Of a stretch of DNA of 64,000 bases, positions 9,083 to 43,267 are shown piece by piece. The notes beneath the pieces are model-generated. The model made no database searches. It saw nothing but the letters and a program-made list of their open reading frames with translations, and was not told the origin of the DNA. The DNA is from Marsupella aquatica (Eukaryota; Plantae; Marchantiophyta), in NCBI GenBank assembly GCA_973895155.1, contig OZ316893.1, positions 6,844,963 to 6,908,962 on the forward strand. The letters are read 5' to 3'. Made by a program: the position numbers and the translations under genes. Positions within the stretch are counted from its first letter, which is position 1; each line of letters starts with the position of its first letter.

Positions 9083-9299
9083 ATTCTACCGCCGAGATTT
9101 AAGCCCACCCAGTACGTTTACAGAGACACCCCCAGGCAGCAGGAAACAACAATCCGCCAACAGTAAAATAAGCCCAACTGCCACCAACCATAACAAGGTA
9201 CATTAGTTCAAAGATCACATTTATTTCAATGATCTGATTTATACAAAAAAACTTGTGTCCAAACTGATGCTACTACTCCTCACTCTGATTCAGAATCGC

Positions 9300-11424: not shown

Positions 11425-11435
11425 GCCTGCGCATG

Positions 11436-11579
11436 AGATAGACTCTACAATTTAGCAGACTGCATAGAAAGTAATATATATTTAGCATTTAAGATACAAA
11501 GGCATTTAGATAGACTCTACAATTTAGCAGACTGCATAGAAAGTAAAATATATTTAGCATTTAAGGTACAAAGACATTT
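11436..11579. repeat. 72-bp tandem duplication next to the Copia insertion site
   Basis: AGATAGACTCTACAATTTAGCAGACTGC... at 11436 and 11508, near-identical. Confidence 0.9.
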
Positions 11580-11580
11580 G

Positions 11581-11744
11581 TGTTGTAACCATTTACTCTA
11601 GACCATGGTTAACCCCTAACCCTATCCTGAAGGGGTAACATGGGTTAACACCAACCCCAACATGTAACCCTATGGTGACTATATAAGTCACACCCATAAT
11701 GGAACACAACAGTGAGTTGCAAGTCTCTCCATTGTCACACAACA
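11581..11744 (+). repeat. Copia 5' LTR
   Basis: Identical by eye to 17202-17365; TG...CA termini. Confidence 0.97.
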
Positions 11745-12198
11745 CGTTATCAGCGCGATAGCATCTAAATTTTTTTTCAGTTTGGAGTTAAGGTAGGATA
11801 ATTGGAGTACGGCTTTCAGACAAAGAAATTGACTTCCAATGTTGCGTTTTTAGCCCCACCCCACATCAGTAACTGCCACCGATTCAAATCACACCATAAT
11901 TTAAACTTCGGATCCTCTGAATAGTCCACGAATCCTTACGGAAAACACACAATCCGTATATAATTGATTAGTGACACTATCGGAGAGGCATGAATCACTT
12001 TGAAATAGTGTTTTCCCGTTCAAATTCGACTCAATTTTTTTTATATCTTATTGTTCCGCCACGGAAATCCTGAGTTTCTTTTATCGCCAAGGAAAATCCC
12101 GTGGATAAAAAGGCACGAGTGATTGAAGTAATTGAGAACGACATAGATTTGATATTAATCAGAACGCGGACAGTGATTTGTTACAGATTTGAGATACT

Positions 12199-16839: not shown

Positions 16840-17201
16840 GCAGCTCGAGCCGACAGACGACAGCCGACTCGACGACGATGCAACCTAAAACTTTCATTCC
16901 TGTATACATAGCCAGAATACGATTTCTCATACCAATACAAGATAGAATAATTATTATCGTAAACACCCCATTTAAACTAAGGGGAAGTAGTTTTAGTAAT
17001 AGGGGACCCAAATTAAACTTTACATTTGGACAAATTATAAGGTAGACTCACCTTAGTGCAAATTTAAGAAAATCCTACTAATGGTGGCTAGAACCCTTTT
17101 TCCTTATGAAGAAAGCAGAAGGTTTTAATGGGGCAGCACCAAAAATAAACATAGGGTTAGTAGTGTGGTGATTTTATACCCCTAAACTCTCCAAGGGGAA
17201 G

Positions 17202-17365
17202 TGTTGTAACCATTTACTCTAGACCATGGTTAACCCCTAACCCTATCCTGAAGGGGTAACATGGGTTAACACCAACCCCAACATGTAACCCTATGGTGAC
17301 TATATAAGTCACACCCATAATGGAACACAACAGTGAGTTGCAAGTCTCTCCATTGTCACACAACA
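17202..17365 (+). repeat. Copia 3' LTR
   Basis: Identical to the 5' LTR, preceded by the PPT. Confidence 0.97.
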
Positions 17366-17977
17366 ATTTGCTACTGCAATGAATTGGAATGGCCACACAA
17401 GGATGCAGAGCAGCCATACTTTTGGTATGTTGAGCCAACACACTCCCCTAATACAATTGCTCCACCAACACCTCAATTTTAATTGTGGCTATGATTCACC
17501 AAATGAGATCTGCAACAACATTTCATGCATTTGAATCACATACAATAGTCGTGACATGTAAAACATGCATTCTTCAAAGAGGATTGGTATGAAGCAGTGT
17601 CATAAGAGTTGAAATGTATACATCCTAAATAAGCTATGATAGTGGCTGGGACAAATAAGTGAGGCATAAATCACATTTTACAGGTTATCACATGGCCCAT
17701 TAATTCATTGAACGTTGCAATGTTCACCAGGTTAAAGCAGTCATGAAAGTAGTCTTTTCAATAGAGACTTTTGAGCGAGTTTGCTAGCCTCTTAAATTAG
17801 GATATTTTGCTTAGTACAGGCATAATAGGATAAGTTATGTACTGTTGACCCTAAACCCTGGACCCAAAATTGCTCATACATCAAAATTTTAAGTAAATAT
17901 CCTCTGTGTTGAAGTTAGAGTGTTAAGCTATAGGTCAATGGTATCTGGTCTGTGCATGCGGTGTGACAAGTGGTTCT

Positions 17978-18427
17978 CTAGAGCATGTAATCCAAACATG
18001 TGTAGACACCAAAGTCACCGGTGGTGGGGTCTGGGAGGGCAGGACAAGTAACATCACCAGGCACACTGTAGGATGGTGAGTGGTTCCAGATGATACATTG
18101 TGCTCTATGCAAAAATTGGCATCCAAGAGAACGGTCATCCAATTCTGAGCCAGAAGCCCTACAGGCAGGAAAGTCATATTGGCAATTGTGCACACACCCT
18201 TGGCACCTAATTTATGGCGGGTCATGTACAAGAGACACAAATACCAAGGATGTCGGGAAGGGTACTGAAGCAGGTAGAGGCCAGCTGTAGTTGTTCCTGG
18301 AAACAACAGGGTACTCAAAGTACCATGCAGACTGGGCTGGAAGGATCCCAAGTCTGATATACTCAAGGCGCAACATCTCTACCTTGCGTGCAAGCCGCAC
18401 ATGTTCAGCATTGCGGGTCCTCACCAT
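17978..18427 (-). pseudogene. Cys/His-rich orphan cargo ORF, copy A (one in-frame TAA)
   Basis: MVRTRNAEHVRLARK...; same start and stop positions as the intact 149-aa ORF 26849-27298. Confidence 0.6.
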
Positions 18428-18934
18428 AAGTGTTGCTTTTGTTGTGATGTCCTCTATTCACGTCCTTTGATGAGCAAGGCGAGCAGGAGGTCGACTTGCC
18501 TCGCCAACAACAACCAACCTAAACTAATCAGTTCCCATTCACTGTCTTGGTTCCAACTATAGGTCATAGTATACACATAGCATGAAACATGCATAGTACA
18601 TATTTGATTATGAGTTTATGAGTTTCCTAAGACAAAGAGCTTGGTGATAAACCCATGATCTTGACGGACATGTATCAATCATATTAAGATCCTATTTTTT
18701 CATTCAGAAAGACCAAAAGTCTCACCTTGTAGGTTGCACCAGAGAGAAAATTCACTGGTTGTCGTGTTGTGCAAGTGAACCTCCACTGATGCCCCCGGTG
18801 TAGCCCCTCAGATGCAGGTGACACTTACCAATTCCCAAGTTGCCTGGTCTAACAGAAAATGCTTATATCTTCAGAACTTTATAGAGCAAGTACATGATCA
18901 CATGGCGTTGGCCCTACCAAAATGTACGTTCAGA

Positions 18935-21520: not shown

Positions 21521-21862
21521 ATCTTCGAAAAGAAGCCCACCACAATTAAGAACTTCGGTATCTGGGTGAGGTATCAGAGTCGTACAGGTTATCACAACAT
21601 GTACAAGGAATATTGTGATACCACGTTGAACGGAGCTGTAGAGCAGATGTATGATGAGATGGCTTCTTGTCATAGAGTTCGGTTCCCTTGCATCCAGATC
21701 ATCAAGACTACGACAGTCCCTGTCTCTCTGTGCAAGCGAGAAAGTACCAAGCAGTTCCATGATTCAAAGATCAAGTTCCCCTTGACGTACCGCAAGATTC
21801 AACCTCTATCGCGAAAGCTAAAGACGACTTACAAGGCCACCAAGCCCAACACATTTGTTTGA
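21521..21862 (+). pseudogene. RPL18A: 60S ribosomal protein L18a (eL20) terminal exon, orphan fragment inside CACTA-A
   Basis: After acceptor ...TACCAG it reads [31 protein letters not shown]...[17 protein letters not shown]...KPNTFV*. No upstream exons seen. Usually conserved Arg residues appear as Cys (EYCD, ASCH). Confidence 0.9.
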
Positions 21863-22244
21863 GTAGTGCGGGTGCAGGTTCCCAATTTTGAAACAATTTG
21901 GCTCATTTTATGTCCCGAGGGACTCCTGGAGTTTATGTATTGAGTTTCTAGGTCAAGATGTTTAATATAAAGAAATTCAATTATCACTTTGTTCCCAACT
22001 TCTACTAATTGAATATACACAAGCTGGAAGCAAGAAGACACTAGTAGAAACCAGGGCAATTTAGACCATACCTTATAGGACTAAGCCCACTAAGTCCTTT
22101 TTCCATACTTGAAACGACTCGCACCCATTGCACCGGTTTTGTTGAAGACTACAAAAGACTATTAGTGTTTTATGGTTCACTAAAAGACTATGAGAAGTAA
22201 CCTTGCTACTTTGTGAACGGTGAATAGTCTAGCACATCATGGGT

Positions 22245-23440
22245 AATGTTCACTTATGTTGAGGAGGGGTAATTCTGTAAAGAGGGTGATAGCAAGGGGC
22301 ATAACTCAATAAATGGCCTTATTTGTGACCAAAAAGGTTTTGGAGTGAGGTTCATGGAGGGTGGACTACGGAGGGATCGATTACTAACTCCATCAATAAA
22401 AGGCCGAGATGCACAAAGGTAGATTTGTACCGGTCTCAAGGGGGTGTGGGTTTAGGGTTAGGGGGTTGTCCAGGCAAAGAACACTCGATTGAAATAGTGA
22501 CGCAATGGTTTAGGGTAAAGGAACATGTTTAGGGACCCTAACTTGTTTGCTGCCTTGGGAGGATCTTGAGAGCCTGAGCTTGCAAGCGGCATGCACTCTA
22601 AAAATGGCCCCTGGCATTGCAAAGATAGTCTGGCCACAGTCGAGTTGTGAAGACGTTTAGGGGGTTTATATGTCAAGGCTAGGGGGTGGCTGGGTTTTCA
22701 CTAAAGGGGGTTTAGGGGGGGTTTGATGTCAAGGGTCGGGGGTTGCATGTTAAGGGGATGGGGGTTTAGGAACCATTGGATCGTTGGCATCATGTCCATT
22801 GACATCATGTTCCCCATCATGTCCATTGACATCATATATGTCGGGAAAGATAATTGACAAATTATTCATGAGGGTAGGCAATTTGGACAATGTTCACTTA
22901 TGTTCAGGAGGGGTAATTGCATAAATTAAGAGGGTGATGACAAGGGGCATCACTCATTAAATGGCCTTATTTGTGACCAAAAGAGGTTTGGTTTAATGAA
23001 GTTCGATCACCACAGATATTTGCTAAGGCCAAAGTATTTGTTTAGCGACTCTACACTAAGTTGTCACTCACAACACTTGAGTGAATGGAGGGGGTTTATG
23101 GAGGGTCAAGATAATCTTGCCGTTACCATGTCGGCAACACCAGTGACTTTGGTAAGGGTATCCCAAGCTAGGGGCCTGTACCGTTGCAGTACCGTTTGGA
23201 CACCCGAGTCGCGCGACCGTTGGAAGGGAACAAGCCGGTTATGCAACTTTGCTTACACTTAGCAGGTTGTTGATGTGTTTAGGGATCCCGCCACATTCCC
23301 AACCTGCGGAGCAAGGTTTATTGTGTTCTCTTGGTGGGATCGGGAGTTTAGGGATTGGAGCAAGGTTTTATCGTGTTCTCTCGATGGGATCGGGAGCTTA
23401 GGGATCGGAGCAAGGTTTTCCGTGTAATCTTGGTGGGAAC
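22245..23440. repeat. Direct repeats in the CACTA-B 5' region: ~100-bp pair (~22245, ~22890) and ~49-bp triplet (~23308-23440)
   Basis: AATGTTCACTTATGTT...ATTTGTGACCAAAA occurs twice; GGAGCAAGGTTT...GGGATCGGGAG(T/C)TTAGGGAT is repeated in tandem. Confidence 0.8.
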
Positions 23441-26330
23441 ATCTCTACAATGAGGTTTAGTGTTCCCATTTTCTTGTGGTCGGCTCTGTGGAATCCGAGA
23501 AGAGGGATCGGGAGTTTAGGGATGCTGCAATGACCAGCTCTCGAAGGGTGAGGTGAGACAACCTATTCAACGCCCTTTTGCTGCACCCTTAAGTTGTCAA
23601 GCTGCCATTGAGTTGGTGAAGCTGCATGCGGGTTGCATCTGTTCTACGGGTGCGCTATCTGCCTGGTTTATGGATTGTGGACTTTGTGGGGAGCGACAAT
23701 TGGTAACAACGTGAAGGCCATCAGAGGCTGGGCAAAGCAGTTTAGGGTGCTGTGGTCGAGGAGGAGCTCACCACAAATTGGGGAGAAGACGCGGGTGACG
23801 AGCTGGGGGCGGGGAGGAGCTGCGGTCAGGGAGGATACAGACCGTCTACAGAACGACTGGCAGTCGGAGCGGCACAGGAGCTTAGAGTGGGCCAACGCCA
23901 GCTGAATACAAGCCAGGAGTTGCATAAGGTGAGAGTCCAAGTTTTGTGTTGCTTTAGTGTTCGAGCAGCGTGCTTCCATTTCAGCCACAGTGCACCGCCT
24001 TTGAAGCTCCCGTTGTCAGGGCTGGTAAGACATCACGGCTACATTGCTTTTCTTTGTTGTCCTCTGTCTTTTTGTGGGGACAACCTACTTGATTTGAGTT
24101 GCGCAAATCGTCATAAGTTAAGGCATGCATCATGCCATCTGGATAGTGTGCCACCAAACTGTGGGAGGATGAGCAACGCATGGCTGTAAGCAGGTATTCT
24201 GTCAGCACAGGCGAGATTTCATTGTTAAAATCCTATTGCCTGCAATGTGTCTTGTAATGTGTTTTTCCTCATTCAATCAGGAGCTGAGAAGGGTATTGTT
24301 AGGCTTCAATTACTCTGTGTTTTTCTCCAGCTCCATGGTACAGTTTGTGCTTTGTCTGGCGCCCATGCTCCGTCGATCGTAGAGCTAGGTCAACCGAGCT
24401 TTGAAGAGGGAGGCTGTGGGAGCTCCTTACTGTGCTGCAGCTGCTCTTCAATCAACGGTGTAGAGATTGTAGCTACGATCAGTGTTTGCGGAGCTGCCAG
24501 CCGGGTGCTTCGATAGTAGAGAAGAGCACCCACAGTGATTCAGTCCTTCTCCTACTTGCAACCAAGGACCCCCTGTGCATCGTAAAGTATGACCTCGGAG
24601 CTGAGCTGCGCACTGTCTCTATTACATGCCTTGTTGTTCTCTATTACATGCCTTGTTCTCCCGTCCACTATTTCTTGCGATTTTCTTTCTTCTAGAAGAG
24701 AATGGTGATTTCTTCTTCAATCAAACAAAACCCCACCCAACCACCACCCAAGAACGTGTGGTGCGCGCTTCTTAATCCTCCTCAAATTGGCCCCAAGTCT
24801 GCTGAAACCCCATATATTACCCACCGGCACCAAGGGTCCAGTCCCAACCCGTCTTCCGCTTGCCACCCTCCTCACTCTCTCGCGCATCTATCTCCCGATA
24901 TTTCATGCGCAGCCGAGCCCACCAAAAGCTCTCTCCCTACAATCCCTCCTAAATCAACTTTCTCGTTTCCTGCTACTGCTGATGTATGTTTGTTCTCCCC
25001 TATTTTTGTTTACTGATTGGTCTCTCCACACTTCCTGCTTGACATTACTGTTTTGCTCCTCCTGGATCCAAACATGCCTTGTGCCCCGTGCTCCAACCTG
25101 CATCCTTTTCTTTATTGAGGGGGGGACCACAGCCTCCAGCCATACCTTGTGGCGGGCCTGGTCAAGACGGTGGTCGGTAGCTCGTTTTTGCTTTTTTCTC
25201 TTTTGTTTCCCAAGCTTCTGGGCGAGGGCATTACCATTCTGGATTCTCCGCGAGGCGCCACTAGCTTTTTTTCTCGGTTGCCCGTGTGCCTGCCTTCTTA
25301 GTTTTGTTTTTTCCTCGAGTGACCGGGCCATCGCTGTATGCAGATTTTTCTTGTTGTATTCATGTACAGTATTTTATTGTTCTATCTAGGCTGTGGCAAG
25401 CCAACAAACTGTTGACCACCAACATGGAATAACAACTATGCAGTGCAATGGCAGAGGACACTGTCCAATACAGGAATGACATGGTTATGTTTTCAATTCC
25501 CTGCTTGGATGAGGCGTGGTGTTGCTTGTAATCATGTATTTCTTCACACTAGAAAAGCAGTCTGTCAGATGAGGTTGTCGGGATTGTCTGTGGGTCAATC
25601 ATCTTACGGACACCTAGCAACGTCAAATGAATGGCGGAAACGGGCCATGTTGTCATTTTGAAATTTGTCTTTCCTTTTGCCATGCTACCCAATCATTTTG
25701 TTAGTCCATGAGTCATAGATTCATAGATTCTATGTTTTGTGCTTTGTCTAGAATGCTATGGCGCCCATGCTACAATTTGTGGTTTTTGTCTAAGCACAAA
25801 TCCTCTCTGTGCCTGGTCTCTGTGTCCCGTCATTTGGATTGATTGTGCAGACGTTTCCTCTTCTCCCAGTCCTTGTCATCCACCAGCCAAAGCACATTGG
25901 ATTGTTTTCAAAGGAGGGCTGTGTAGTTCGGAGGGTTTGATCTATGCAGCGGATTTGAGCAGATTGGCGGTTGTTAGTTTCTTCTTGTAAAACCTGTTTG
26001 TCTTTTCTGCTTTTGGCCATGCTCCTTCACTTGTTGCTGCAAGCTCAATGTGCTTCAGCTATGGCAATATTCACTTACCCTATCCCAACGGCACTGCCAT
26101 GAGCTATAGGACAGCCAACAGAAGCAGATTGTATCAATTGCAAGTAAGTCAGGGTATTTTATGTATTGCGGAACAACTGTCCAAGTATGCTGCAATGGTC
26201 CATCTTGCGCAGCTGAATGAGCCAATTTCATTTTCCCTATGCACTTCTATTTCTCAGAGAATTCCCTGGTCATGCTCATTTCCCCCAGAGTTAGAAAGCA
26301 AAGAAGAAGAGCTGACTAATTGTAATTCCA

Positions 26331-26392
26331 ATCCATATCCCGATCGGTCAAGGATTGTGAACTACATTGGCCTTGTCATTGGCCGAGGTCAC
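26331..26392 (+). pseudogene. Possible SF1/BBP KH-domain fragment
   Basis: With small indels it reads IHIP-VKD..NYIGLVIG(P)RG, like the SF1 motif YIPVKEYP.YNFIGLIIGPRG. Confidence 0.4.
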
Positions 26393-26848
26393 CAAATTTT
26401 GCTTGGTTTCATTCCTGTGGAGCACTGCTGTGATGGATGAATAGTTGTCGTAGCATTTTGCAAACTCTCACGGTTTGCTTATGGCCATTATTTGCAATTT
26501 GCTGCTACTAATATGTCTTCTTCTAAGCAGCATACACCAGAAGTAAGCAATAGTGGAGGTTTAACTGCACATCAACACATCCAGTGAACTACCTCTCTGC
26601 TGCTCACTGGAGGGTGAGACTTTCACTCTTTTGGATATTGTAGTTTGTAAGCAAGCTGATTAGGAGTGTTTCATGCTATGTTTACACTGTGACCCCTAGC
26701 TGGAACCAATGGAATGACACAGTGAGTGGGAACTGATAATTTAAGGTTGGTTGTTGTTGGTGAGGCAAGTATAGCTCCTGCTCACCTTGCTGATCGAAGG
26801 TGCTTATCAGAGGACGTGAACACATGACACTCCACAAAAGCAACACTT

Positions 26849-27298
26849 ATGGTGAGGACCCGCAATGCTGAACATGTGCGGCTTGCACGCAAGGCAGAGA
26901 TGTTGCGCCTTGAGTATGTCAGACTTGGGATCCTTCCAGCCCAGTCTGCATGGTACTTTGAGTACCCAGTTGTTGCCAGGAACAACTACAGCCGCCCTGT
27001 ACCTGCTTCTCCACCCTTCCCAACATCCTTGGTATTTTTGTCTCTCGTACATGACCCGCCACAAATTAGGGCCCAAGGGTGTGTGCACAGTTGCCAGTAT
27101 GACTGTCCTGCCTGTAGGGCTTCTGGCCTAGAGTTGGATGACCGTTCTCTTGGATGTCGGTTTTTTCACAGAGCACAATGTATCATTTGGAACCACTCAC
27201 CATCCTGTAGTGTGCCTGGCGATGTCACTTGTCCTGCCCTCCTAGACCCCACCACCAGTCACTTTGGTGTCTACACATGTTTGGATCACACGCTGTAG
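26849..27298 (+). CDS. Cys/His-rich orphan cargo protein, copy B (149 aa)
   Basis: Open ATG-to-stop ORF conserved with copy A; CVHSCQYDCPAC...C..H..C...H...C...C pattern. Confidence 0.6.
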   Translation: MVRTRNAEHVRLARKAEMLRLEYVRLGILPAQSAWYFEYPVVARNNYSRPVPASPPFPTSLVFLSLVHDPPQIRAQGCVHSCQYDCPACRASGLELDDRSLGCRFFHRAQCIIWNHSPSCSVPGDVTCPALLDPTTSHFGVYTCLDHTL

Positions 27299-27969
27299 AA
27301 GACCACTTGTCACACCGCATGCACAGACCAGAGACCATTGACCTATAACTTAACACTTTGACTTGAACAGAGAGGATATTTACTTAAGATTTTGAATTAT
27401 GAGCAATTTTGGGTCCAGGGTTTACGGTCAACAGTACATAACTTATCCTATTATGGCTGCACTAAGTACAATATCCTAATTTAAGAGGCTAGCAAGCTCA
27501 CTTAAAAGTCTCATTTCAAAGACTGGAATTAATGGGCCATGTGATGTCCTGGAAAAAGTGATTTATGCCTAACTTATTTGTCTCATTCACTATCATAGCC
27601 TATTTAGGATGTATAAATTACAACCCTGATCACACTGCTTGATACCAATCCTGTTCAAAAAATGCCTGTTTTACATGTCACGACTGTTATATGTGATTCA
27701 AATGCATTAAATCTTGTTGCATATCTCCTTTGGTGAATCATAGCCACAAAATTGAGGTGTAGGTGGAGCTATTGTACGAGGGGATCAGTTTTTAGTGTGG
27801 GCTCAACAAACCAAAAAGTATGTCTACTCTGCACATGTGTGTGAACATTTCATTGCAGTAGCAATTGCCACTCTAGTCTATATGCTACACTGTACTTTTT
27901 GTACACTGCTAAATTGTATTGTCTGTGCACTCTGCTAAATTGTACTATATATCTGTCTCATGCGTAGGC

Positions 27970-28650
27970 ATGGCACGCCCTAAAATCCGAGCCAAGAAGC
28001 GGGGGACAGAGGTGAGCAACATAGGTGTAGTTGGGTCAGATGGTAGTAACTTCTCCGCAAGTCAGATTTTCCAGAAGTGAGCTCATTGTTGTGCCATTTG
28101 TGATGATGGTGGGGGCTTAGCCATATGTGAGGGCCCTTGCATGAGGCATTTCCACCTCAACCCGGAGTCTGACCTTGCTGCAGAAAACAACTGTCCAGGG
28201 GTGGGCCTCCCGTCAGCACACCAAGGAGGCTGGATGTGCACTGATTGTTTGGAGAAGCAGGCTAAGTGTGCACAGTGTGGGAAGTTGGGGTCTCATGAGG
28301 GCTCTGTTGATGCTCCACCACTTGTTAGGAAATGCCCTGACAGATATTGTGTGAGGTTCTTTTGTTTTTCATGTTTGCCCGATCTTGCCACAGCTTGCCC
28401 ACTTCATAAGTGCAAGGCATGTGGTCAGCACGATGAAGATTTATGGGTGGACATAGTCCACTGTGTTAGGTGTCCCACCATGTGGCACTTTCATTGTTTG
28501 AAGGAGCGTCAAGCAGAAGACTATGCTTGTGACAAACACATCTATCATCACTCTGCACATGGTGTTGATCGATGGATCTTCTATTGTCATCGCCATGCCA
28601 TAGATCCTACTTTGCACACTCCCATGAGAGATCACATTTCTTGGCTTTGA
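27970..28650 (+). pseudogene. EDM2-type PHD-finger cargo gene, copy B (one in-frame TGA at 28078-28080)
   Basis: MARPKIRAKKR start in frame with CAICDDGGGLAICEGPCMRHFH...YCHRHAIDPTLHTPMRDHISWL. Confidence 0.88.
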
Positions 28651-29248
28651 ACCTGAATAATGTACATGCATAGTGCACCTGATGTGGATACCTTGGAGAT
28701 TGCAGACATTCCAATTTTGAGAAGAAGGACCTCTGTAGGAGAGGATGCTTAGGCAACAAGTACCCTAAGTTCATTACTTGTTCTTGGGTACATGCCTTCA
28801 AAAACTCCCCTTAAGCCTTCTAGGAACTTTTTTAACTCTGCAATCATTTTGATCACGACTTACATGACACTGCTTAAATTAAATCAGGACTTCTCATTAT
28901 GAGCATATAAGTTACAAGGCTATTTAATTTGCGAGAATTCCCTTAAAGTGTACCAACATTTTGTATTCTCATTGAATGTCTGCCCATTTGCAACATCTGT
29001 ATGTGGCATCACAAAACAATTGCACTTGTCACCTTCAATATTGTGAAGGCACATATTCAAACTATGAGGTGCATGCTTGCAGGTGTCTAGTACGTTTGTC
29101 CCAATATTTCTCCCGTTTGGAATCGGAGCAGAGACTCACCAGACGACTGGACTGGACCAAGTTATAAACGCAGCATTTTAAGGGCCCTCCGATTATCAGG
29201 TGAACGCATTATCTTCCGGTCTGCAGTGATTAGGTGGCCCGTGTGTAC

Positions 29249-30097
29249 ATGGCCTCTAGGAAACGTACAAAGGTTGACCACCCACCTCTGTTGGCTGGAA
29301 TCAAAGCCATTTTGATTCCTGGCCACTATGGGTTCACCCAAGTGAGTTGGCCAATCGTACAAAAACGATTCTCAGAGTTCCATGGGACTGAAGTCAAGGA
29401 CATCACTCCACAGACTACACATGTTGTTGCGGGGACATGGCTGGATGTGATGAACAAGTGGTCATGGTCCTTCATTGATTCTGCCATTACCAACCAAGGT
29501 CTAAAAGTAGTTGAAGTCTCTTGGCTGACCGATTCTGTTAAACATAGGTGTGTACAGAGTACTGAGCAATATGAGTTGTGGGAGAGTGAGGAGGCCACTG
29601 TAGAGGCTTTGGCTGAAAAGGAAGCCTATGAAGCAGTAGCAGAGAAACCCAACTTTGCTTCTGTCCAATATGGACCTGTTGTCAACATAGGACACCATCC
29701 TATGCGTGTAGATGCTATATTGAATGAGCATGGCAAGGAGAGAAATACCATTATGAAAGGGTTCAGTGTGGTATTTGCAGAAGAAGGAATTGGGGAGACT
29801 AAGTGCAGACTGTACAAGTCCATAGTTGTTGAGCTAGGTGGGACAGTGGAGGAGAGTCTAACAGAAACCTCCACTCATGTTGTAGGTCTGTCATACATGA
29901 AAATATGCAGAAAATTCTTTAAGACAATAGTGCGTGATTTTGTCATGAACAACAATCTTTGGGTGCTTTCCCCTGATTGGCTTCTGGAATCAGCAGCTAC
30001 AGGGAAGCGACAGAATGCTTGGGACTTTGATATTTTTGAGGCCTGGCCCTCCAAGATTCAGCGGAGATGTATGCTTAGCAAAGGTGGGAGAGAGTGA
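29249..30097 (+). CDS. Tandem BRCT-domain cargo protein, copy B (intact, ~282 aa)
   Basis: Two BRCT repeats: TTHVV...VVEVSWLTDSV and LGGTVEESLTETSTHVV...VLSPDWLLESA. First ATG at 29249. Confidence 0.85.
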   Translation: MASRKRTKVDHPPLLAGIKAILIPGHYGFTQVSWPIVQKRFSEFHGTEVKDITPQTTHVVAGTWLDVMNKWSWSFIDSAITNQGLKVVEVSWLTDSVKHRCVQSTEQYELWESEEATVEALAEKEAYEAVAEKPNFASVQYGPVVNIGHHPMRVDAILNEHGKERNTIMKGFSVVFAEEGIGETKCRLYKSIVVELGGTVEESLTETSTHVVGLSYMKICRKFFKTIVRDFVMNNNLWVLSPDWLLESAATGKRQNAWDFDIFEAWPSKIQRRCMLSKGGRE

Positions 30098-30237
30098 GGA
30101 GTAGGAGTCCCTCATATTTTTGTATAAATCACAATTTTGTAATAAATGTGATCCTTGAACTAACTCATCTTGTCATGGTTGGTCGCAGTTGAAGTGATTG
30201 TTGTTTCCTGCTGCGTGGGGTGTGACTGTGAATCTAC

Positions 30238-30810
30238 TTGCTGGGCTCTGTTTGGCTGAAGACTTTGGTGGGTATGCTGCCTCTTCCAGACCGTCAGGCC
30301 CTATGTAGGGTCCTCCTACGGGTTGCATCGTGCATGGCTACTGCTTGGGCTTACTTGTGTGGATTGGTAACCAGACAGAGTGTAGCTCCATCCGAGATAA
30401 TGCCTGCAGACCTTGGATGTGTTGTGAATGCTGTGGTGAATGAGGATGCACAGTCCGAAGAGGACATTTACTTTTCAGTAGATGAGTTAGACAAGCACGA
30501 TGCTGTAGGTGGTTCCTTGTTGCCTGATTTGGCAGATGATATAGTTCTTACACATGTCTGGACGAGGGTTCTTGTGGTGTCTGGCGCACAAGATATCTAC
30601 AAATATAGACTAATTAGTACCCAGTGGAGGGACTTGGTAGCAACATGTGCACCATGGAGGGCACTGCTGCCACTGCTTGTAGGCACGGATCGAAGACCAC
30701 CATGGCATGAGCAGGGTTTAGACCTTGATGACTTAATGTACATGCCTGAGTACCTCAGGGCTGAGTGGCATTGACAACAGGATTGGTATCCGTATTTGAT
30801 GTGGTAGTAA
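30238..30810 (+). pseudogene. F-box-like cargo gene, copy B (late CGA>TGA stop at 30772-30774)
   Basis: LLPDLADDIVLTHVWTRV...YRLISTQWRDLV; homologous to 8555-9082. Confidence 0.55.
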
Positions 30811-31133
30811 GATGAGGACATCTCACACCGGTCTCGCACCTGGCACCTGTGTCTATGACTATACATGATTGGACTCTGATATGGTCATGGATGTACGTGC
30901 AGAGGCAGTACATGTGAGGACAGCGGAGGAGTTGACACCCTCAAACATTTAGGAATTTTGTCTCATTCACTTGAGAATAGGTACATGACTCAGGCACCTA
31001 TATTTTTTGTTTTTTTGTTTTTTTGGAATGTTACGTATTTTGGCAAGTACAGTCGGGGGTGAAATCCTTAACAGGAAGTGTATTTTTCACTTGCATAATA
31101 AAATGACAGGGTGCTGAGTGCGTGTGTATAGTG

Positions 31134-34100
31134 ATGGCTCCAAGGTTGCCTCTTCACAACCCATTTAGGATTAGGCATCATGATTCTAAATTGTGGATGC
31201 GTGAACAAGCCCAGGCCGCCCAAGGTAGGAGTAGGAGGATGAGATGCCCATGCACATAGTGCCAAGGATTCAAGTCATTGAGTTTGAACACTGTGCACCT
31301 TCACCTGCTGCGGCATGAAAGGCACCCTCGGTGGAGGGTTTGGAATGTACCAGCAGAAGAAGACTCCTCTGATGAAGAGTGGAGAGCTGACTTTGTGGAT
31401 TCTAATACAGCTAGGCGTAGAGACTACGTAGAGCAGGACATAGACTGTGCAGAGGATGGTCTTGGGGTCCAACATGAGAACGTGGATGACCAAGATGGAG
31501 ATGCAGAGGCAGTCACTGAGACGGTGGGATGGATGTCCCAAGAATGGTTCAAGAGATTTTTGAAGACCTTGATGCTTTTTACGACATAGTGGAATCAGAA
31601 GAGGACAATGAACTGCAGCCACACATTGGAGACGGCCAAGCTGAACCTGACTTTGACATTGGGGAAGGTGCAGCAGAGAGGGAGTGGGTGTTTGGGGGCC
31701 CAAAACACATCAAAGAAGCTTGCATTCCTATCTACGAGGGGTCGAACTGCTCCAAGCTGGGTTTTGTCATGTTGTTGTTGAACATCTGTGGCAATCACAA
31801 TGTTCCCAATATATTTGTGACAGAGTTGTTGACCTTCCTGCGCCAAAATGTGTTACCATATGGTAATTCAATTCCAAAAAATATGTACGAGGCTAGGAAA
31901 TTGATGTCTAACCTTGGGCTGAACTATGTGTCTATTGACGCATGCCCTGATGGGTGTGTTCTCTTTCGCAAAGAGCATGCAGATAAATTGACATGCCCTC
32001 ATTGTGGTAAGCACAGGTACAAGAATGTAGGGAAATGTACACACCCTGCCAAGGTTCTTCGTCATTTTCCTCTCATTCCTAGACTACAACGTCTGTTTAG
32101 ATGCCCTGCCATTTCCAAGCTGATGACATGGACTCCTGATAACAAGAGCAGTGATGGCCTACAGCGTCACATTGGAGATTCCAACCATTGGAAATTTGTT
32201 GATGAGAGGTGGCCACAGTTTGCTGCAGAGAAGCGGAACTTTCGATTTGGTCTATCACTGGATGGAGTAAACCCATTTGGAGACAAAAACAACCGTTATT
32301 CATGTTGGCCGGTTACGCTGCTAAATTACAACCTTCCCCCATGGATGACTACAAAGAGGTTTTTTGTCATGATGGTGCTGTTAATCCCTGGACCAGCTTC
32401 TGTGACCGAGCAATTCATAGATATCATGTTGGCTCCAGCAGTGGAAGAGTGGAAGACTTTGTGGATAGAAGGGGTGTTAACCCATGATGTTCTGAAGGGG
32501 CTTCTTCGACCCAGCCCCTTTAGACTGCATGCAATTTGTTTGCTGGATATAGCAGATTACCCAGGCCATGGCATCATATCTGGACGAGTGACAAAGGGCT
32601 ATGTGGGGTGCACACCATGTGGGAAAAATGTGACAAGTGAGTGGTCGCATGCCCTGCACAGTATGAAATTTCAGGGGCATAGAAGGTATCTGCCTGTTGA
32701 TCATCCTTACAGGCACACACGGTCTCAAATTGCACACTTCAACAACAAAACAGAGCTTCGTGGCCCACCACAGAGGGTCACCAGAGAGCAAGTCCTGAGG
32801 TGGGCAGCCAGGAAGGCTAATTGGGACAAGAGAAGTGTCACTGATCGAGAAACTAAGGATCCAGTGGTGAAACACGGTGTGAAAAGACAGACCTTGATAG
32901 ACTTGGAGTTGGAGTACTAGAGGGTAATGTACTTAGCCTCCAGCCCCTGTATGATTGCAATTTAGATTGGAGCAATGGTGGATTGATGTTGGTTACAATC
33001 CTCCTATGTGGTTAATTAGTGTTTCTGTTGTTGAATTCTTTGCTTTGTGGAGTGCAGGAATTCGAGCCCAGCAAACACAATGTGGACGTCATGCACATTG
33101 AGAAAAATATTTGTGAGAGCTTGCTGAAGTTCTTGTCGGGTGAGAAAGATACAGGAGCAGTTCGAGCTGATATGCAACAGAAGGGGATTCGCCCTCACCT
33201 TTGGTTGAAGCCCCATGCAAGCAATCCCAATGTACTTCTCAAGTTCCAAGCTCCCTATGTGTGCACACAGGATGAATGGAAGACATTCTTGTATAGATTG
33301 AGCTGTTTGAAAGTGCCCTCTGGCTATGCTGGTGCCTTCAAGAAGCATATTACAAAGAATAAACTTGGCAGTATGAAAACACATGACTACCATGTGTTGA
33401 TGCAACACATTCTGCCCCTATGCCTCAGAGGTCTCATGCAAAAACCAGTCCGTAATGTCATTCTTTGACTGTGCAATGTATTTCGCCGTATATGTGTGAA
33501 AGTGTGGGATCCCCAAGGATTGGAGCAGTTGAAGCAGGATGTTGCTTATGTCCTCTGTGACTTGGAGATATACTTCCCCCTTGCTTTCTTTGATGTTATG
33601 ACTCATCTCCTAATCCATGTGGTAGAAGATCTAGGGCAGTCTGGGCCAGTCAGTACCAGATGGATGTACCCTATGGAGCGATACATGAAGTTGTTGAAAG
33701 GTCATGTGAGAACATACTACAAGCCAGAGGCTTCCATGGCATTGGGGTACATTAAGGATGAGACGTTGGGATTCCTAACAGAGTACATGGCTGGGTCTGG
33801 TGAAGCTATGACAAGAGTTTGGAAATCTGGTGAAGATGATGCAGTGAGTGGCAAGGTTGTTGAAGGTGTGGGACGTGCTGTTAAGCTGCCTGTTGCGATT
33901 CGAGACAAGGCTCATTCATATGTGTTGGCAAACACAGAGCCTATGCAACCATGGTAGAGGTGAGTGATTGAATTGACTTGCCTTTGTTGTGATGCTTCTT
34001 GTCTGTTCCAAGGGTGATCTTAGGTTGTCATGTGTTGTTTAGACCTAACTATGCCTGTACCTCATATTGCAGGGAATATGATATGCAAAAAGCTGCACAC

Positions 34101-34832
34101 TCTGGGCAGCAGGATCCCTTCCCACAGTTCGAGCAGTGGATTCGGGTGACAATTCGAGAGCATAGTAGACATCACCCAGATATGGAGAAGGATTTGTATC
34201 TTCTATCTATGCCACCACGATTGTCTATTCTGACCTACAAACAGATGAGAGCTTATGGAAATCATTATCGAGTGAGGGATGAGCAGGGTGACCATTGTGT
34301 ATCATATGATTGTGGTTTGATTTCTGTGTTTGAGCAGAGAACCTCTGAAGAACAGAGGGGGTGGATGAAGATGGGTTACGTGGGGGAGTTGACCGACATT
34401 TGGGTGTTGAATTATGGTAACACAAGTGTCCCAGTGATATTGATGAAGGGATCATGGGTGAAATCACAGTGGCAGAGACCAAGGGCCACCATGAAGCGTG
34501 ATCATGATGGGTTCTTGTTGGCCAATTTTAGGTCCAGAGTACCAGAATGGTCTGAGCCTTTTGTTTTCCCTAGCCAAGTTGAACAGGCTTTCTTTGCAGA
34601 TGTGGAGGAGTCCCATGGCTGGAGGGTGGTATGCCATAGCCAAGCACGGAACAGGCGGATGGATGGAAGTAAAGTAGAGTTCAGTTTGGATGACCATGCT
34701 GCATTCGAGCATCCTAGTTATGAGACTATACTTCCAACTCGGGCAGGGACTGACTACATCCCCTTAACATTGAGAGAGACATATGATGAACCTGGGCAAA
34801 TGGAATATGATGAGGTTGATGATTTGCAATAG
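31134..34832 (+). pseudogene. tnpD: CACTA TnpD-like transposase, copy B (transposase-associated, Transposase_21, DUF4218- and DUF4216-like segments; spliced; nonsense and frameshift lesions)
   Basis: RCPC..C, FGLSLDGVNPF, DVMHIEKNICE, MKTHDYHVLMQ, RWMYPMERYMK, EPFVFPSQVEQAFF. Introns at ~32925-33057 and ~33960-34072. TAG at 32918 replaces Trp. Confidence 0.95.
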
Positions 34833-35009
34833 GCAACAGCTGGCGATTGGCAAGTATGAGGTTGAGGATGACTACCTGCACAGAGTCACAGAACGGGAAT
34901 TGCTGCCTGGAATGATGTTTAGGATAGTTGGATATGCATGAAATTGATTGATACTTTGAAGTTAGTGTGCTGATTCTCCCTGTTTGGTTGTGGGTGTTGT
35001 GCAGAAGCT

Positions 35010-38000
35010 ATGGGGGAAGAGGGTGATGACATGGAGACAGACATGGGGCTTGGAGAGTGGGGTGAAGAGGAAAGATTGGATATGGATGGAGACCCAGATG
35101 CAGGGGGCTCACAAAAAAATGCACTTGTGCAGGATGCATAGGGCCCTCATCAAGTCCCAGGTAGGTGGGCAGCTAGAGAGAAATCACATAATCCATACCC
35201 TAGAAGGAGCCAGAGTTATTGGCAAGGGACGCCTGATAATTATGATGATGACTATGATGGAGCAGAAGATGCATGGGATGAATATGAACACCCAGAGCGT
35301 GGTAGAGACGGGTACAGAGGGCAATGGAAAGGTGAGGAGGATGATTGGACAAGTAAGTGCCTTGTGCTAGTGATTTTGTGATGGTAGTAGAGATTTAGCT
35401 CAATATGGACTTATCTGATGTGTAGCTAGGGCAAAGAGTTTATCTTACAGGTCCATGAGTGTGGCATGTACCTGTTGGTATGCAGACTCTGATTGGGACA
35501 ATCACGAAAACAACAAAGGCCATCCATGTTCAGATTGGAGGCAATCATTCACAGGCGGGAGAAACGGCCCTAATTCATCAAGACAAAGCAATAGGACAGG
35601 TGATCCAGAACCATCTATGCGCCAAGGGAGAGGTAACTTGGTCATTGCAGAATTGCTCTGAAGTCCAGTGTATATTTGGCAGCAGGATTTATGATTCATA
35701 CTTACCTAATGGATCCTGTAAATGTGCAGGGACTCCAGGGAGGTTTGGACAATGCAATCCAGGCCGTGGGGGGAGATCAGGCCGTGGAGGGACCCCAGGC
35801 CGTGGGGGGACACCAGGCCGTGGAGGGACACCTAGTAGCGCTTCAGGGAGTACCAAGGCAGGAGACAGTAACAAATTTGGTAAAGTAGAAGTGAATTCCG
35901 ATGGTTGGATAACTCCCACATGTGATGGTAAGAACCGTTGGCATTCTGACCTAAGAGGAGAAGTATTGCGTTGGTTAGATTTGAGCATTACAGAGTTTAG
36001 GAGTCAGAACAAAGCTGATTGGGCTGCTATCTGCAAGGACATTCTTGAACGGTGGGACTATGTTGGTAATGATGGTAAGGGCCCAGTTGAAGATTGCATA
36101 TCAGATTATGCAATGAGGATTTTGAAACAAGAGAGGCATAGGTTGAAAAGGATGTGGATAGACAATGGTTCTAACAGGAGAATGCCACCACCCCCATCAT
36201 TGGAATTGGATCAATGGACACGGTTAATCAAAGGATTCATGTCAGAGGCTGGACAGAGCAAAAGTGAACTGATGTCAAATGCTCGAGGCAAAGTGAAACA
36301 CATGTCACAGGCTGGGAGAGGAAGTTATGCTCCAGTGAAAGAACAATTGGTAAGGCAGTGACATGCCTGATAGTAAGCCTCAAACTTATCATCTTGCTAC
36401 CATTATTACATTTTCATTGACAATCAACACTTGGTTTCATTCATATGTATGTTGATGTGGACTGCAGAAGAAATTGACAGGTGAAGAACCATCAGCACAA
36501 GAAGTGAGAGAGGAGTTCATGAAACAAAGGAGTGAGGTGACAAGTGTGACTTCCAAACAGGTGATTATGTTGTAATTCTGTATGTTCTGTGACTATTTGC
36601 CCTTGAGCATCAGAAAGAATTGTAGTAGGAAGTAAGCAACCAGTTCTTGGGGACAATTATCTGAGATATGTAAGTTGTGTTATGACAGGGAACTGTTACA
36701 ACTCTCACAGAGATGTGTGAACGGTTGAAGTCATTAGAGTGTGGACTCCCTCGAGTGGAAAGTAAATTGGCTGATCGTTTGGATATTGTGGAGGCATCTG
36801 TAGCGAACCTTCTTGCATCAGTGGAATCTAATTTCAAGCTTGTGATTGAAAAATTGGGTGGTTCCCAACCAAACAATGAGGGCAACATTGTACAAAGTGT
36901 GCCCTTGTTAACAAAAAAGGGAATTGGCAAATCTGACACAGGTATGGAAATGACACCGGCCCATTGTTCATTGTGTCCTATGTTCAAATGTTAGAAGTAA
37001 GTTTTCATGAATTGAGTGAATGGTTTGAATGCAGGAAGAGTGGAGGCAGAGAAGGACCCTGTAATCAGTAAGTGAATGGTTTGAATGTAGGAAGAGTGGA
37101 GGCAGAGAAGGACCCTGTAATCAGTAAGCAGAATGGCAAAAAGGTTGCTGAGACAGGTAACCTGCTATGATCCAGTACATTACATTTGAAAAGTGCATGG
37201 AGTTTTGTGAAGCTTAAGCCGGTTGGAGGTAACCTTTTTTGTAAGAACTGGTTGGATCAACTGGGATCTGAAGTGACATCATGATTGATGTATCAGGTGA
37301 TTCAAAGAGCAATGAAAAAGATGTGCCCAGTGCCTCAGTGACCATAGCCAAGGAGGTATCAGGTAAGCTGATGCTTTAAATTCCTCTCCTACCATTGTTG
37401 AGAAACAATTCAGTGGTTAATAGATTGAACCTGAATATTGTGGTGTGTTTATTGATCAGCAGAAGCAGACATGGAGGATATGGCAATGGTAAAGAAGGGG
37501 AAGAAGGCTGTTCATAATGGTAAGGAGATAGTGACAACTTTGTGGTTGGTGACATGTACATGGCGCACTTGTGATGTCTGAGTGATTCACTTATGTTGGA
37601 CAATGCACTGAATTGTAGTTGATGCAGAGTTGACAGACTCTCAACCAAGTGGGAGCAGGGTGAAGCGACGTCAAAACTTGGGAGCAACATTGGATGCAAG
37701 TAAGATTGTAGATGCTTCAATTGAAGCAAGTACAATGTTGGCAGATACTGAGATGATATCGCAGGGAAATCTTGCTATACAATTGGAAGTGTCAAATATG
37801 GATGCAGATTCTTTGAAGAAGAGTGTATCCAATTCTCGATCACCAGCACAAAACACTCGTGCCAAAGTCATGACTCGCAACCAAGGTATGAATAATGTCA
37901 TGTATAAGCCACCCAGGAAAGCCAAGAAAAGCAGCCAGGGTAAGGTGGAGGTGATAGCCACAGCAGAGCTAGTCCATAATCTTCTATCATGGGAGGATGA

Positions 38001-38223
38001 CTCGCAGGTATGTGTGGGTACAGGCATTTTGCGACCGGATCATGCTAAATTCCATGGCAAAGTGGTCCCGGATGACCATGTAGTAGTGTTGTTGACTACA
38101 GTGATTGTATCTGATTGTAATTTGCCATTTCCGAATAGAGACGATGATCCACCTCAAGAAATAATTGCAGATGCAGTAGGATCTCTTGTGCTCTGGCCAT
38201 CAGAGTGTGTTAGTCTGCAGTGA
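35010..38223 (+). CDS. tnpA: CACTA TnpA-like multi-exon gene (Ptta/En/Spm-type domain and C-terminal Tnp1-type domain); exon structure approximate
   Basis: ERHRLKRMW...PP....DQWTRLI...KSELMSNARGK...GRGSY; C-terminal FHGKVVPDDHVVV...LPFP...IADAVGSLVLWP; PGRGGT repeats at ~35760-35835; several GT-AG introns. Confidence 0.75.
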
Positions 38224-41200
38224 CTGAATGCAAGTGTAGATAGAATCATGTGACATGTGTTACATTTTGACATTGCCTTGGAAAGATCCAAGAAATATCT
38301 GTACCAATTTTTCCATTTGGTAAAGAGGATGAAGGAGCCGTTGTGTGTGACATTGATATTTCTGAATTCTGTATATATGAAACAAGTGATTGATGTCAAA
38401 CTATGGCTCTATGGTGATTGTCTATGATACTTGAATCTGTTTTGTATCATTTCAGTATTAGTGTGTATGGTATAGACGAATGCTTTGTGACCTTTGTAGT
38501 CTATGATGTTTGAATCTGTGAATTCATATTAGTGTACATGGTATAGAAGATGGCTTTCTGAAAATTTGTGTGAGGTTCTAATGTTAACATGGTGAATGGT
38601 GACCTTATAGAGTGAGTTCATTCCAAGTACACAATAAAACATGAATGGAATGTGTTATTTGTGCACAAGAGTGAGTTCATTCCAAGTAGTATAGTGGGGT
38701 CTTCATCACTCATTTCCAGTTGACATGAAAGACTTGTACATACCCCACAAAGTGTCTACTTTAGTCGTTTTATAAACCCACAAAGTATACTTAAAGACTA
38801 CCCTCCATAACCTTTTGAGTCGTTCCCAACCACTCACCATCGCAGTCCATAAAAGACTGAAAAAGACTCACCAAACCTACCCACACAAAGACTACAATAG
38901 ACTGAAAATCCAGTCTATAAAACGACTTATAAACCAGTTCTATAAAGGACTCAGTTGATTATAGTAACAAAACATACGACTCATAGTCCTATAAAGGACT
39001 GGAGTCCTTCCCAGTCGTTTCCAAGTCCTATACGGTACTGAATAGTTGTTTTATGGGGTCTAAATACCCCCCGGTTTCTACTAGTGAGACAAGCCACAAT
39101 CTAGCATCTTAGCCAAACACAATCGTCCAGACAAAGCAAAACTCAGCTGGACAGAAGTCACTCGGATCCACAAAAAATTGAAGATTCACCTCCAAGCCGG
39201 AGGCCGATCACTTCAGTACAGCAGCTTTTGGACGGAACAAACTCTGCTCAACCCCACAGAAACACAAATGTTAAGGCTCCAAGTTAGAGCTCACAAACAG
39301 AAACTCAGATAAATAACATTCAAAATCTGTCCATGTTTGTGCAAAGTGTACATATTCATTCTTTTGGAATGAACACGTAATGCATACATCACCTAGACAC
39401 AGTCATTATAAATCATTGGGCAATTGGGGACCACTAAGCAGGTGTGTTCCTATTTCGAGGCTACAGGAAAGGATAGAGTGACACCAAACTCAAGAGTACA
39501 CCAAAAGAAAAACAGCAAGAACCAAAGTCAATCATGTGTGGATAAATTGCACATGGGAAGTTCCCCTGAAGAAGCATCAGTTGCTAACATTGTCACCCGA
39601 ACCACACCCAATTTATTACCTCAATGTCTTTAGCCTCAATATCCAATCCTCAGCCCCCTGGTGCTTCCGTGTTTGTTCTGAAAATTTCTGTGATGAAATA
39701 ATTATTCAATACATTCAATAGCAAAGAGAACTCAATCACAAAAGAAAAATAGTTAGTGTGAATGCTAATTTCTCAACCCTTAACTAAATTCAAACCACCA
39801 ATTCAAGTAGTAAATTTCAAAAACTTGCCTTTACATGAAGAGAAACCAATTGGCCATGCATGTTACTAAAGCAATAAACAAATAATTAGGCTCAACACAC
39901 AGGCAAACTACTCGAAACATGCTGCTGAGAAGTAGCATTTTTTGAATGTCAGATTATATGTAAGTGCCATGATCGTGCTCCTACGTTTCACAAGGAGGGC
40001 TGGCCCGAAAGGGAGAAGCAACAATGTGGAGTCTATACACGTAGCACAAATCCCAGTTTAGAAGGGTGGATGAAGTTCAGACAAGAGTTCAGAACTTGCC
40101 ATTTGAGATTGCCAATCTGAACTTCACATTCAGACAGGACTTCATCCAGTTTAGGAGTTCAGATAGGAGTTCAGACAATCTGAAGAGGACTTTGGACTTG
40201 AATGAGGGCCATATAGTTATCCTTGTGGCCTTCAACTGCGTGTCTCAAGCTGAATTTCACTTTCCAGTTTCAAGAGTTGTGAAGGTCTAGTTTTAGTAAC
40301 TTCCTCCTGACTCGACTTGGGAGCATTCTTTGTATTTGCTAGCTTGTATAGTAGTTAGCTTTGACTCCTGTCAGCTTAGTTGACGACCCTCTTGAGATAT
40401 TAACAATTAGAACAAACACAAGTTGTCAGACAGATTCCACCGGAGCAAAAAGTCCAAAATCAGGTGAAAGAAAACCTAAGGAAAGTCCATAAGAACAAAA
40501 GTAGGAAGACAGGCACACGGGCCACTAAGAAAAGTAAAGGATGCATGTGATTAGTGGGGAGGGATCTTAGCAAAAACAGGGGAAAGCAAGGGAACTTGCT
40601 GCTAAAATTAGCTGAACGATTGCACGGTTCCTATAAATTTAGTGGACCTTAAGGTCGTCTGTTCACCCCCCCACCCCACCGCCAGAGCACGGGGCACAAG
40701 GCATGTTCTCATACATGGAGGAGCAAAACAGTCATGTCAAGCAAGAAGTGTGGAGAGACCAATCAGTAAGCAAAAATATGGGAGAACATACATACATCAG
40801 CAGCAACAGGAAACAAGAAAGATGATTTCGGGTGGCATCTTAGGGTCGGGGACACCACTGCAACACCGGGACTTAGGATATGACTTGTTCTTAATCTGCT
40901 GATAGCATCCGGCAGACCGGCAACCCATGGCAAAAGGGCAGAGCAGCAATCCGCTAAAAAAATGGAACATTCAACAGGAAATGAAGAATAGGCACCCGAG
41001 CTCAGACTGTGTAGGAGTACAATACCAAGGCTCAATCCCTCTCTTCATTGGGTCAGCACCTATGTAGGTGCACGCTAAGGAGCAGTAGTGACTACGGCAT
41101 CTGGGAAGGCGCAACTCAACAACAGAAATTCAGAAGCACCACTTGGCCGCTTGGGACTGTCTGTGGTAGTCGAACAATATCATGGGTCTTGCCTGGCTGG

Positions 41201-43237: not shown

Positions 43238-43267
43238 GGTCTCAGAAAGGGTGGGTTTCTTCTAGTG
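43238..43267 (-). repeat. 5' terminal inverted repeat of CACTA-A
   Basis: GGTCTCAGAAAGGGTGGGTTTCTTCTAGTG, versus the copy-B end GGTCTAAATACCCCCCGGTTTCTACTAGTG. Confidence 0.85.

Follow-up and report, generated by a model that had tools for sequence, protein, structure and literature searches.

A CACTA transposon of the liverwort Marsupella aquatica with four complete extra genes, one of them an EDM2-type PHD module, upstream of its transposase

In a 64,000-nucleotide stretch of the Marsupella aquatica genome (contig OZ316893.1, positions 6,844,963 to 6,908,962; hereafter the window, in whose coordinates all positions are given), we identified element B, a complete CACTA cut-and-paste DNA transposon that carries four whole extra genes 5' of its transposase gene. 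A second, diverged family member in the same window, element A, has the same four single-exon open reading frames (ORFs), in identical order and on the strand of the transposase gene tnpD, as an initial annotation of this DNA had described. We consider it very probable that the four ORFs are accessory genes maintained by the element. The features of element B are as follows.

22039..39086, plus strand: CACTA element B, complete, 17,048 bp, with terminal inverted repeats (TIRs), target-site duplication (TSD) and empty site
22039..22052, plus strand: 5' TIR of B, followed by subterminal repeats
24948..25311, plus strand: 5'-arm block of B, with a candidate leader-exon end and splice donor
26849..27298, plus strand: ORF1, 149 amino acids (aa), Cys/His-rich, open in B
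27970..28650, plus strand: ORF2, EDM2-type PHD-only module, 226 codons, with a TGA at 28078 in the B copy
29249..30097, plus strand: ORF3, 282 aa, two BRCT domains joined by a linker of ~55 aa, open in B
30274..30807, plus strand: ORF4, F-box-like (weak), 177 codons, stop codon at 30805-30807, early TGA at 30772
31221..34832, plus strand: tnpD transposase gene (Tnp2, DUF4218, DUF4216), spliced, placed by Pfam and translation, interrupted in this copy by stops and a frameshift
35000..38223, plus strand: tnpA-like multi-exon gene, start approximate, exon layout by eye
39073..39086, minus strand: 3' TIR of B, an exact match to the 5' end

The boundaries of element B are set by the exact 14-bp sequence CACTAGTAGAAACC, which begins with CACTA and which a search of the window placed at 22039 on the plus strand and at 39086 on the minus strand, with AGA on either flank as a 3-bp TSD. 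Contigs from 4/4 sequencing runs compared contain the empty-site joint 22035>39087, which identifies the 17,048 bp of element B as inserted DNA. Of five runs from three organisms, the contigs of four were compared over the element and those of two over the cassette. Motifs chosen after inspection of the sequence occur 8 and 11 times in the terminal 300 bp of B and 0 times in the one control stretch. Within these ends, tnpD encodes Transposase_21 (PF02992, expect value (E) 7e-60) and DUF4218 (PF13960, E 6e-17) above the Pfam cut-off, and DUF4216 (PF13952, E 1.4e-5) and, in copy A, TAD (PF13963, E 5e-5) below it, while one exon of the tnpA-like gene (35480-36358) matches Transposase_24 at E 0.01 and 16.5 bits, under the 28.7 cut-off. 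Unlike non-autonomous Pack-CACTA elements, B thus possesses both tnpD and tnpA-like genes, though damaged ones. A local tandem duplication of ~56 bp is also present in B at 37015-37136.

The copy of B in the window is dead, with stops and a frameshift in tnpD, of which the frameshift at 31519 and the stop at 33955-33957 do not occur in the run contigs shown. Between 27900 and 30900, the window differs from the majority sequence of run X1 at 27 of 3001 sites, and 19 of these are C>T or G>A changes toward the window, as is typical of post-insertion decay; the early stop of ORF4 is one of the differences. Position 30772 is C in all covering depth (2005.6/2005.6 in X1 and 64.7/64.7 in run X5), indicating that the early TGA of ORF4 is specific to the window copy. 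Depth in X1 is ~1650-2010 over ORF2-ORF4 and their spacers, 1770-2070 over tnpD and tnpA, and ~280 over part of the B 5' arm; contig depth is a hint rather than a copy number, and no single contig crosses the whole cassette, yet such depths agree with a family that moves cassette and transposase together. The placement of the cassette in a CACTA family, originally proposed from the letters of the sequence, is therefore borne out, since it lies inside a TIR- and TSD-bounded unit and, on the scale of the family, accompanies the transposase.

Element A provides the comparison on which much of the following rests, and its genes are arranged as listed here.

6697..18817, minus strand: element A core, with ORF1-ORF4 and a truncated tnpD (8204-6697)
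18427-17978, minus strand: A ORF1, with one TAA
11424-10747, minus strand: A ORF2, with one TAG
10154-about 9285, minus strand: A ORF3, with two TAGs and a frameshift
9073-8555, minus strand: A ORF4, open

Each stop or frameshift position differs between A and B, as the initial annotation had stated. Beyond the two window copies, each of the four ORFs has intact stand-alone relatives that share its start and end at 44-62% identity. Searches restricted to proteins of near length, in which host donors could not appear, recovered two of 22 candidates for ORF1 (P0001 and P0002, 53-54%), one of 635 for ORF3 (P0003, intact, 61%) and one of 61 for ORF4 (P0156, 56% to the ORF4 of A). That the four ORFs might be exons of one gene is ruled out by the conservation of their starts and stops in these distant relatives. 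A viral scan for BRCT relatives gave 0 of 95.

The most extensive set of relatives was obtained for ORF2, with 233 proteins at E <= 0.001, in which short proteins ranked first and long EDM2-like proteins next, liverwort proteins being among the best named long PHD matches. ORF2 aligns over the full 2.5-repeat atypical PHD module with its zinc ligands kept, at 34-41% identity to six named host proteins, and each of five relatives retains 19-20 of the 22 PHD cysteines, versus 36-53% of other residues. We built a tree of 73 rows, for which the input was 71 of 152 relatives (those of <300 aa or with top ranks, four having been dropped for region length). Sixteen of its 31 short PHD rows, including both window copies, form one group (support 94 in the Shimodaira-Hasegawa-like approximate likelihood ratio test), separate from 55 EDM2-like rows that hold the named host proteins. 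Six aligned members of the group have in common a deletion of ~21 aa, and ORF2 has a His-to-Cys ligand swap in its second finger. All 14 members from outside the window come from unannotated contigs, and at least four are off-frame. A metagenome scan added one 1495-bp locus, L001, out of 37 pattern matches, which has an ORF2-like N-terminus and is likewise off-frame. Together, the unannotated contigs and off-frame copies, L001 included, form the pattern of decaying mobile copies, and the existence of a separate PHD-only clade at this distance from host EDM2 argues against recent Pack-CACTA capture. The near-identity to known host genes that the initial annotation had named as the mark of such capture is not seen for the PHD module in comparison with six named host proteins.

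Selection on the cargo was assessed with the GY94 codon model as the ratio of nonsynonymous to synonymous substitution rates (dN/dS, or omega) between A and B. Omega was 0.33 for ORF2 (p 1.9e-5), 0.42 for ORF4 (p 3.7e-4), 0.14 for tnpD and 0.52 for all cargo together (p 5e-8), with shifted-frame controls at 0.51-1.91; these estimates are biased upward by post-insertion decay in both copies. At least two cargo genes, ORF2 and ORF4, are under purifying selection, and neither has the dN/dS near 1 that had been set beforehand as the sign of unselected cargo. Accessory proteins of transposable elements (TEs) have been reported to have higher dN/dS than core ones (PMC13547354). Insertions and deletions between A and B are absent from the 450 bp of ORF1 and limited to a single 3-bp event in the 681 bp of ORF2, whereas the four spacers hold 13, 24, 6 and 9. 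ORF4 has three, summing to 15 bp, and the DNA alignment of ORF3 has 14 gaps, mostly compensating or in the tail. When neutral change across half of the distance separating A from B was simulated, ORF3 remained free of stops in 0.15% of 2000 runs, and its observed amino acid replacements are more conservative than neutral ones, the observed mean being reached in 0 of 100 simulations.

A number of results weigh against the view that the element maintains all four genes and uses them as their domains suggest. The dN/dS comparison involves two copies, and in it ORF1 (omega 0.56, p 0.12) is not significantly constrained and ORF3 (0.69, p 0.05) is not clearly below 1. Three-way site conservation in ORF3 is 0.454 versus a uniform-rate expectation of 0.446 (p 0.42), and replacements in ORF4 show no excess of conservative changes over the neutral expectation, with 58 of 100 simulations reaching the observed value. 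The PHD tree is a quick version with a midpoint root, in which two long-branch short rows are unplaced. At L001, the single locus examined, the 750 bp upstream hold no ORF1 relative. The TGA of ORF2 at 28078 is not among the window-versus-run differences listed (40 of 69 rows). Short PHD-only EDM2-like proteins are annotated in Triticeae, Miscanthus and Marchantia (P0046, P0050, P0080 and P0090) and fall outside the element group, so that a PHD-only architecture is not unique to transposons and exists in host genes of grasses and Marchantia. Acceptor-like sites ahead of the ORFs are no more conserved than background. ORF4 of neither A nor B matches a Pfam F-box at E 0.1, and its relative P0156 does so at E 0.0034 and 17.7 bits, under the 20.5 cut-off. 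The proposed mechanism, finally, leans on domain identity throughout. We regard ORF3 as a mixed case, a kept but fast-evolving gene; the earlier suggestion of purifying selection on the BRCT protein, for which the cited peptides are correct, agrees with its conservative replacements and is weakened by its omega and its uniform-rate site conservation.

The cassette and the transposase have different histories. Differences between A and B at four-fold degenerate sites number 7/65 in ORF1, 11/72 in ORF2, 20/71 in ORF3, 16/51 in ORF4 (6/37 in its core and 10/14 in its N-terminus) and 37/65 in tnpD, giving a divergence of 0.11-0.31 for the cargo versus 0.57 for tnpD (p 1.3e-8). That the cargo is less diverged indicates that modules were exchanged between families A and B after their transposases had split. 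As a consequence of this recent exchange, sharing between A and B shows less depth than the initial annotation had assumed, and the depth comes from the distant relatives instead. The proposal that all four genes were open in the ancestor accordingly holds for the ancestor of the cassette and fails for that of the two transposases.

Such exchange also speaks for old passive cargo, that is, for hitchhiking host pieces spread by recombination between families, whose apparent constraint would stem from donor genes of the host or from a small number of copies that the host expresses. The lack of significant constraint on ORF1 and ORF3 fits this explanation, as does an ordinary fragment of the ribosomal protein L18a (rpL18a) gene in the putative arm of A, which starts at a splice acceptor, has ~1000x depth nearby in X1 and looks like an in-window example of ordinary passive capture.

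21521..21862, plus strand: rpL18a last-exon fragment in A's putative arm (PF01775, E 2.8e-13)

Against this explanation stand the complete ORFs of the cassette, whose starts and stops recur in relatives at 44-62% identity, the deep PHD-only lineage to which ORF2 belongs, with 34-41% identity to six named host proteins, the indel-free ORFs amid indel-rich spacers, and the omega of 0.33-0.42 between two element copies. We therefore judge passive cargo to be improbable, and retain maintenance by the element as our reading.

What the four proteins might do was approached through their domains, and the functions of chromatin reader, DNA-repair adaptor and Skp1-cullin-F-box (SCF) ubiquitin-ligase adaptor assigned in the initial annotation would follow from domain names only. 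The EDM2-type PHD and tandem BRCT labels themselves are supported by Pfam and by relatives. ORF2 matches NSD/EDM2-type PHD fingers in Pfam, under the cut-off. ORF1 has no Pfam match; its predicted model is poor (predicted local distance difference test (pLDDT) 42.6) and the best fold-search hit, at Z 3.6, is uninformative, but seven Cys and three His are invariant in 4/4 aligned sequences, and ORF1 is likely a zinc-binding protein. None of the four ORFs matches VANC, MAIN/PMD or ULP1 in Pfam. For ORF4, a search against Protein Data Bank (PDB) sequences gave no meaningful match and Atlas features point to F-box clusters at 0.86-0.91 (86-91 features in common); with this and the sub-threshold P0156 match, the F-box-like label survives in a weak form.

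ORF3 matches PF00533 at E 1.7e-13 in two stretches, and its two repeats are ~24% identical to each other. In repeat 1, the Ser and Lys of BRCA1 stand opposite an aromatic residue and Ser, in a weak hidden Markov model alignment (E 0.065). In phosphopeptide-binding tandem BRCTs of the BRCA1/MDC1 type, the phosphate pocket is made by a Ser/Thr-Gly and a Lys of repeat 1. Against solved structures, the BRCT profile matched DNA ligase 4 best (E 0.0056), its other matches being generic BRCT domains, and BRCT2 alone gave Rtt107 as its top match. BRCT2 may resemble the BRCT of plant DNA polymerase lambda; terminal deoxynucleotidyl transferase matched only at E 0.08-0.18. The ORF3 sequence alone found nothing in PDB at E 0.01, and structure prediction gave no usable model (pLDDT 31). 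Plant BCP3/4 BRCT domains are reported to bind through a variant pocket (PMC11014961).

The domains of ORF3 bear on a second explanation, in which the element keeps the genes for the mechanics of transposition, the PHD guiding insertion to particular chromatin, the BRCTs steering break repair and the others regulating transposase levels. The evidence for selection applies equally to this explanation, and the ligase 4 match speaks for it, as does the apparent insertion of B into the arm of another CACTA element, as could happen if TE chromatin were preferred. Yet the match to ligase 4 is a weak one that did not recur for BRCT2 alone, and one nested insertion is expected by chance in a TE-rich region; a role confined to transposition mechanics seems to us unlikely. 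The nesting itself is indicated by a CACTA-type end at 43267 and by a collinear arm block, inverted between 40491-40831 and 24948-25311 with pieces 90% and 84% identical. Element A probably starts at 43267, reaches 6697 or beyond and holds B inside its 5' arm; no matching 3' end for A was found within the 64-kb window.

43254..43267, minus strand: candidate 5' TIR of A, CACTA-type, with one mismatch
11581..17365, plus strand: intact copia element in A between ORF2 and ORF1, with gag-pol domains and a 1546-aa ORF

The terminal repeats of this copia element (165 bp) are identical and it is flanked by an ATTTG duplication, indicating a very recent insertion into copy A. A also has a local tandem duplication of 72 bp at 11436-11579, and its putative arm holds a tandem array of ~14-bp units at 20610-21058.

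A third explanation is benefit to the host in stress, DNA repair or development, with the transposon as a vehicle or with the family being supplied from domesticated copies. The three named domains do come from host regulatory pathways, and short EDM2-like host genes exist. Since the cassette is disrupted in A and B alike, as are several relatives, and lies within mobile termini at family-level depth, we hold this to be highly improbable.

Returning to genes kept by the element for its own sake, we lean towards an accessory kit that would help it inside silenced chromatin, at the interface of chromatin and host. An anti-silencing or read-through role specifically is a more tentative proposal, to which we give somewhat less than even weight. 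Host EDM2 is reported to bind H3K9me2 and to suppress premature polyadenylation in heterochromatin (PMC7529245, PMC10241880). ORF2 could be a stripped-down EDM2 reader, likely acting on the H3K9-methylated chromatin of family copies, where it would bring partners to silenced copies or compete with host readers. Because the transposase genes lie downstream of the four genes, read-through would matter; if the genes are not each driven by a separate promoter, read-through or splicing from a shared leader would be required. The four ORFs may be expressed by alternative splicing from one 5'-arm leader: the arm block, the only block common to the distal 5' arms, has a GTATGT donor-like site and a T-rich stretch in both copies, acceptor-like sites, conserved at background level, precede ORF2-ORF4, and a conserved AATAAA follows ORF3. 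ORF4, which has no recognisable substrate domain, might serve as an SCF adaptor or decoy, ORF3, perhaps without a canonical phosphopeptide pocket, might engage repair proteins of the host where excision or insertion breaks the DNA, and ORF1 would likely be a zinc-binding protein. In its boldest form, which we think unlikely, this would be a land-plant CACTA lineage with its own miniature EDM2 that hijacks heterochromatin read-through to obtain transposase mRNA from silenced copies, with a split ubiquitin-ligase adaptor (F-box-like protein plus BRCT or PHD substrate arms) by which factors of host silencing or repair are eliminated, and with modules traded between families like the accessory genes of viruses.

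Elsewhere in the window, a stop-free frame of 403 codons at 45995-47206 on the minus strand matches C5 cytosine methylase (PF00145, E 1.7e-9) and sits between protease-like and reverse-transcriptase-like pieces of a decayed Ty3-type element, a retrotransposon that apparently carries a DNA methylase. An open ORF of 1074 aa at 2032-5256 on the plus strand has a coiled-coil C-terminus, and its best Pfam match, ATG16 (E 0.017), is unconvincing; it lies upstream of a stretch resembling a long terminal repeat (LTR), the similarity of A's tnpD stops at ~6697 beside it, and it is possibly an accessory gene of an LTR retrotransposon. A host gene for enolase, recognised by eye, lies at about 55895-58725 on the plus strand; it has few introns and an N-terminal extension of the plastid type.

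Accessory genes in DNA transposons are known, and the statement in the initial annotation that CACTA elements encode only TnpA and TnpD was too broad, given published elements with Peptidase_C48, fungal EnSpm elements with TET and an algal Plavaka with three accessory genes. The set of PHD, BRCT, F-box-like and Cys-rich genes in a CACTA element seems to be new, in agreement with the initial annotation, as we did not find it in full-text literature searches (subscription journals, Repbase and supplements being outside the scope). The closest plant parallel in principle is the VANDAL group of Mutator-like elements (MULEs) with VANC and Kaonashi/ULP1, which are plant DNA transposons that keep host-derived extra genes (PMC13317346, PMC13547354, PMC10398659). 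VANC is reported to derive from the host chromatin regulator MAIN, and its anti-silencing activity is proven; VANDAL elements are MULEs rather than CACTA elements, and here anti-silencing is a candidate function. According to the main text of a further source, in which PHD, BRCT and F-box occur 0 times, evidence for anti-silencing by plant TIR elements is confined to few cases (PMC12973397).

The giant Plavaka elements (EnSpm) of the red alga Bostrychia resemble B in their 17-19 kb length and in a fixed accessory set, PAG1-3, one of which is of unknown kind and the others chromatin-related (bioRxiv 10.1101/2025.02.11.637652). As described there, those genes encode modifying enzymes (adenine methylase/SET and 2OG oxygenase), whereas B combines a canonical Tnp2 with non-catalytic reader and adaptor domains. 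Fungal TET/JBP-bearing EnSpm, Plavaka and KDZ elements likewise hold an epigenetic gene inside their TIRs, with frequent transfer between families (Kojima 2025, PMC12730594); theirs is a single enzyme gene, and the main text of that report mentions neither PHD nor BRCT nor F-box. Plant CACTA elements with Peptidase_C48 and Pack-CACTA elements share with B the domains TAD, Transposase_21, DUF4218, DUF4216 and, tentatively in B, Transposase_24, and additions to the 5' region (PMC8978399, PMC13317346, PMC6379663), but their reported additions are a single protease domain within ORF2 or short pieces of host origin, where B has four complete stand-alone ORFs with signs of selection. Zisupton provides a precedent for an F-box in a DNA transposon (via PMC12062965); it is a fish KDZ element with the F-box fused in a transposase isoform, and in B the F-box-like protein is a separate, weakly scoring ORF.

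Proven anti-silencing proteins of plant transposons are few, with VANC the main case in the literature consulted, and the described accessory genes of EnSpm elements are mostly DNA- or chromatin-modifying enzymes. Against that background, a CACTA element with reader and adaptor genes, one of them derived from EDM2, offers a testable new route of transposon counter-defence, with ORF1 as an uncharacterised Cys/His protein family and with accessory modules whose movement among transposon families outpaces the divergence of the transposases. With respect to host EDM2 itself, ORF2 is homologous to the whole 2.5-repeat PHD module and lacks the RFD, acidic, PGR and methyltransferase-like parts, the RFD being seen in long relatives only, which makes it a natural minimal EDM2 PHD module.

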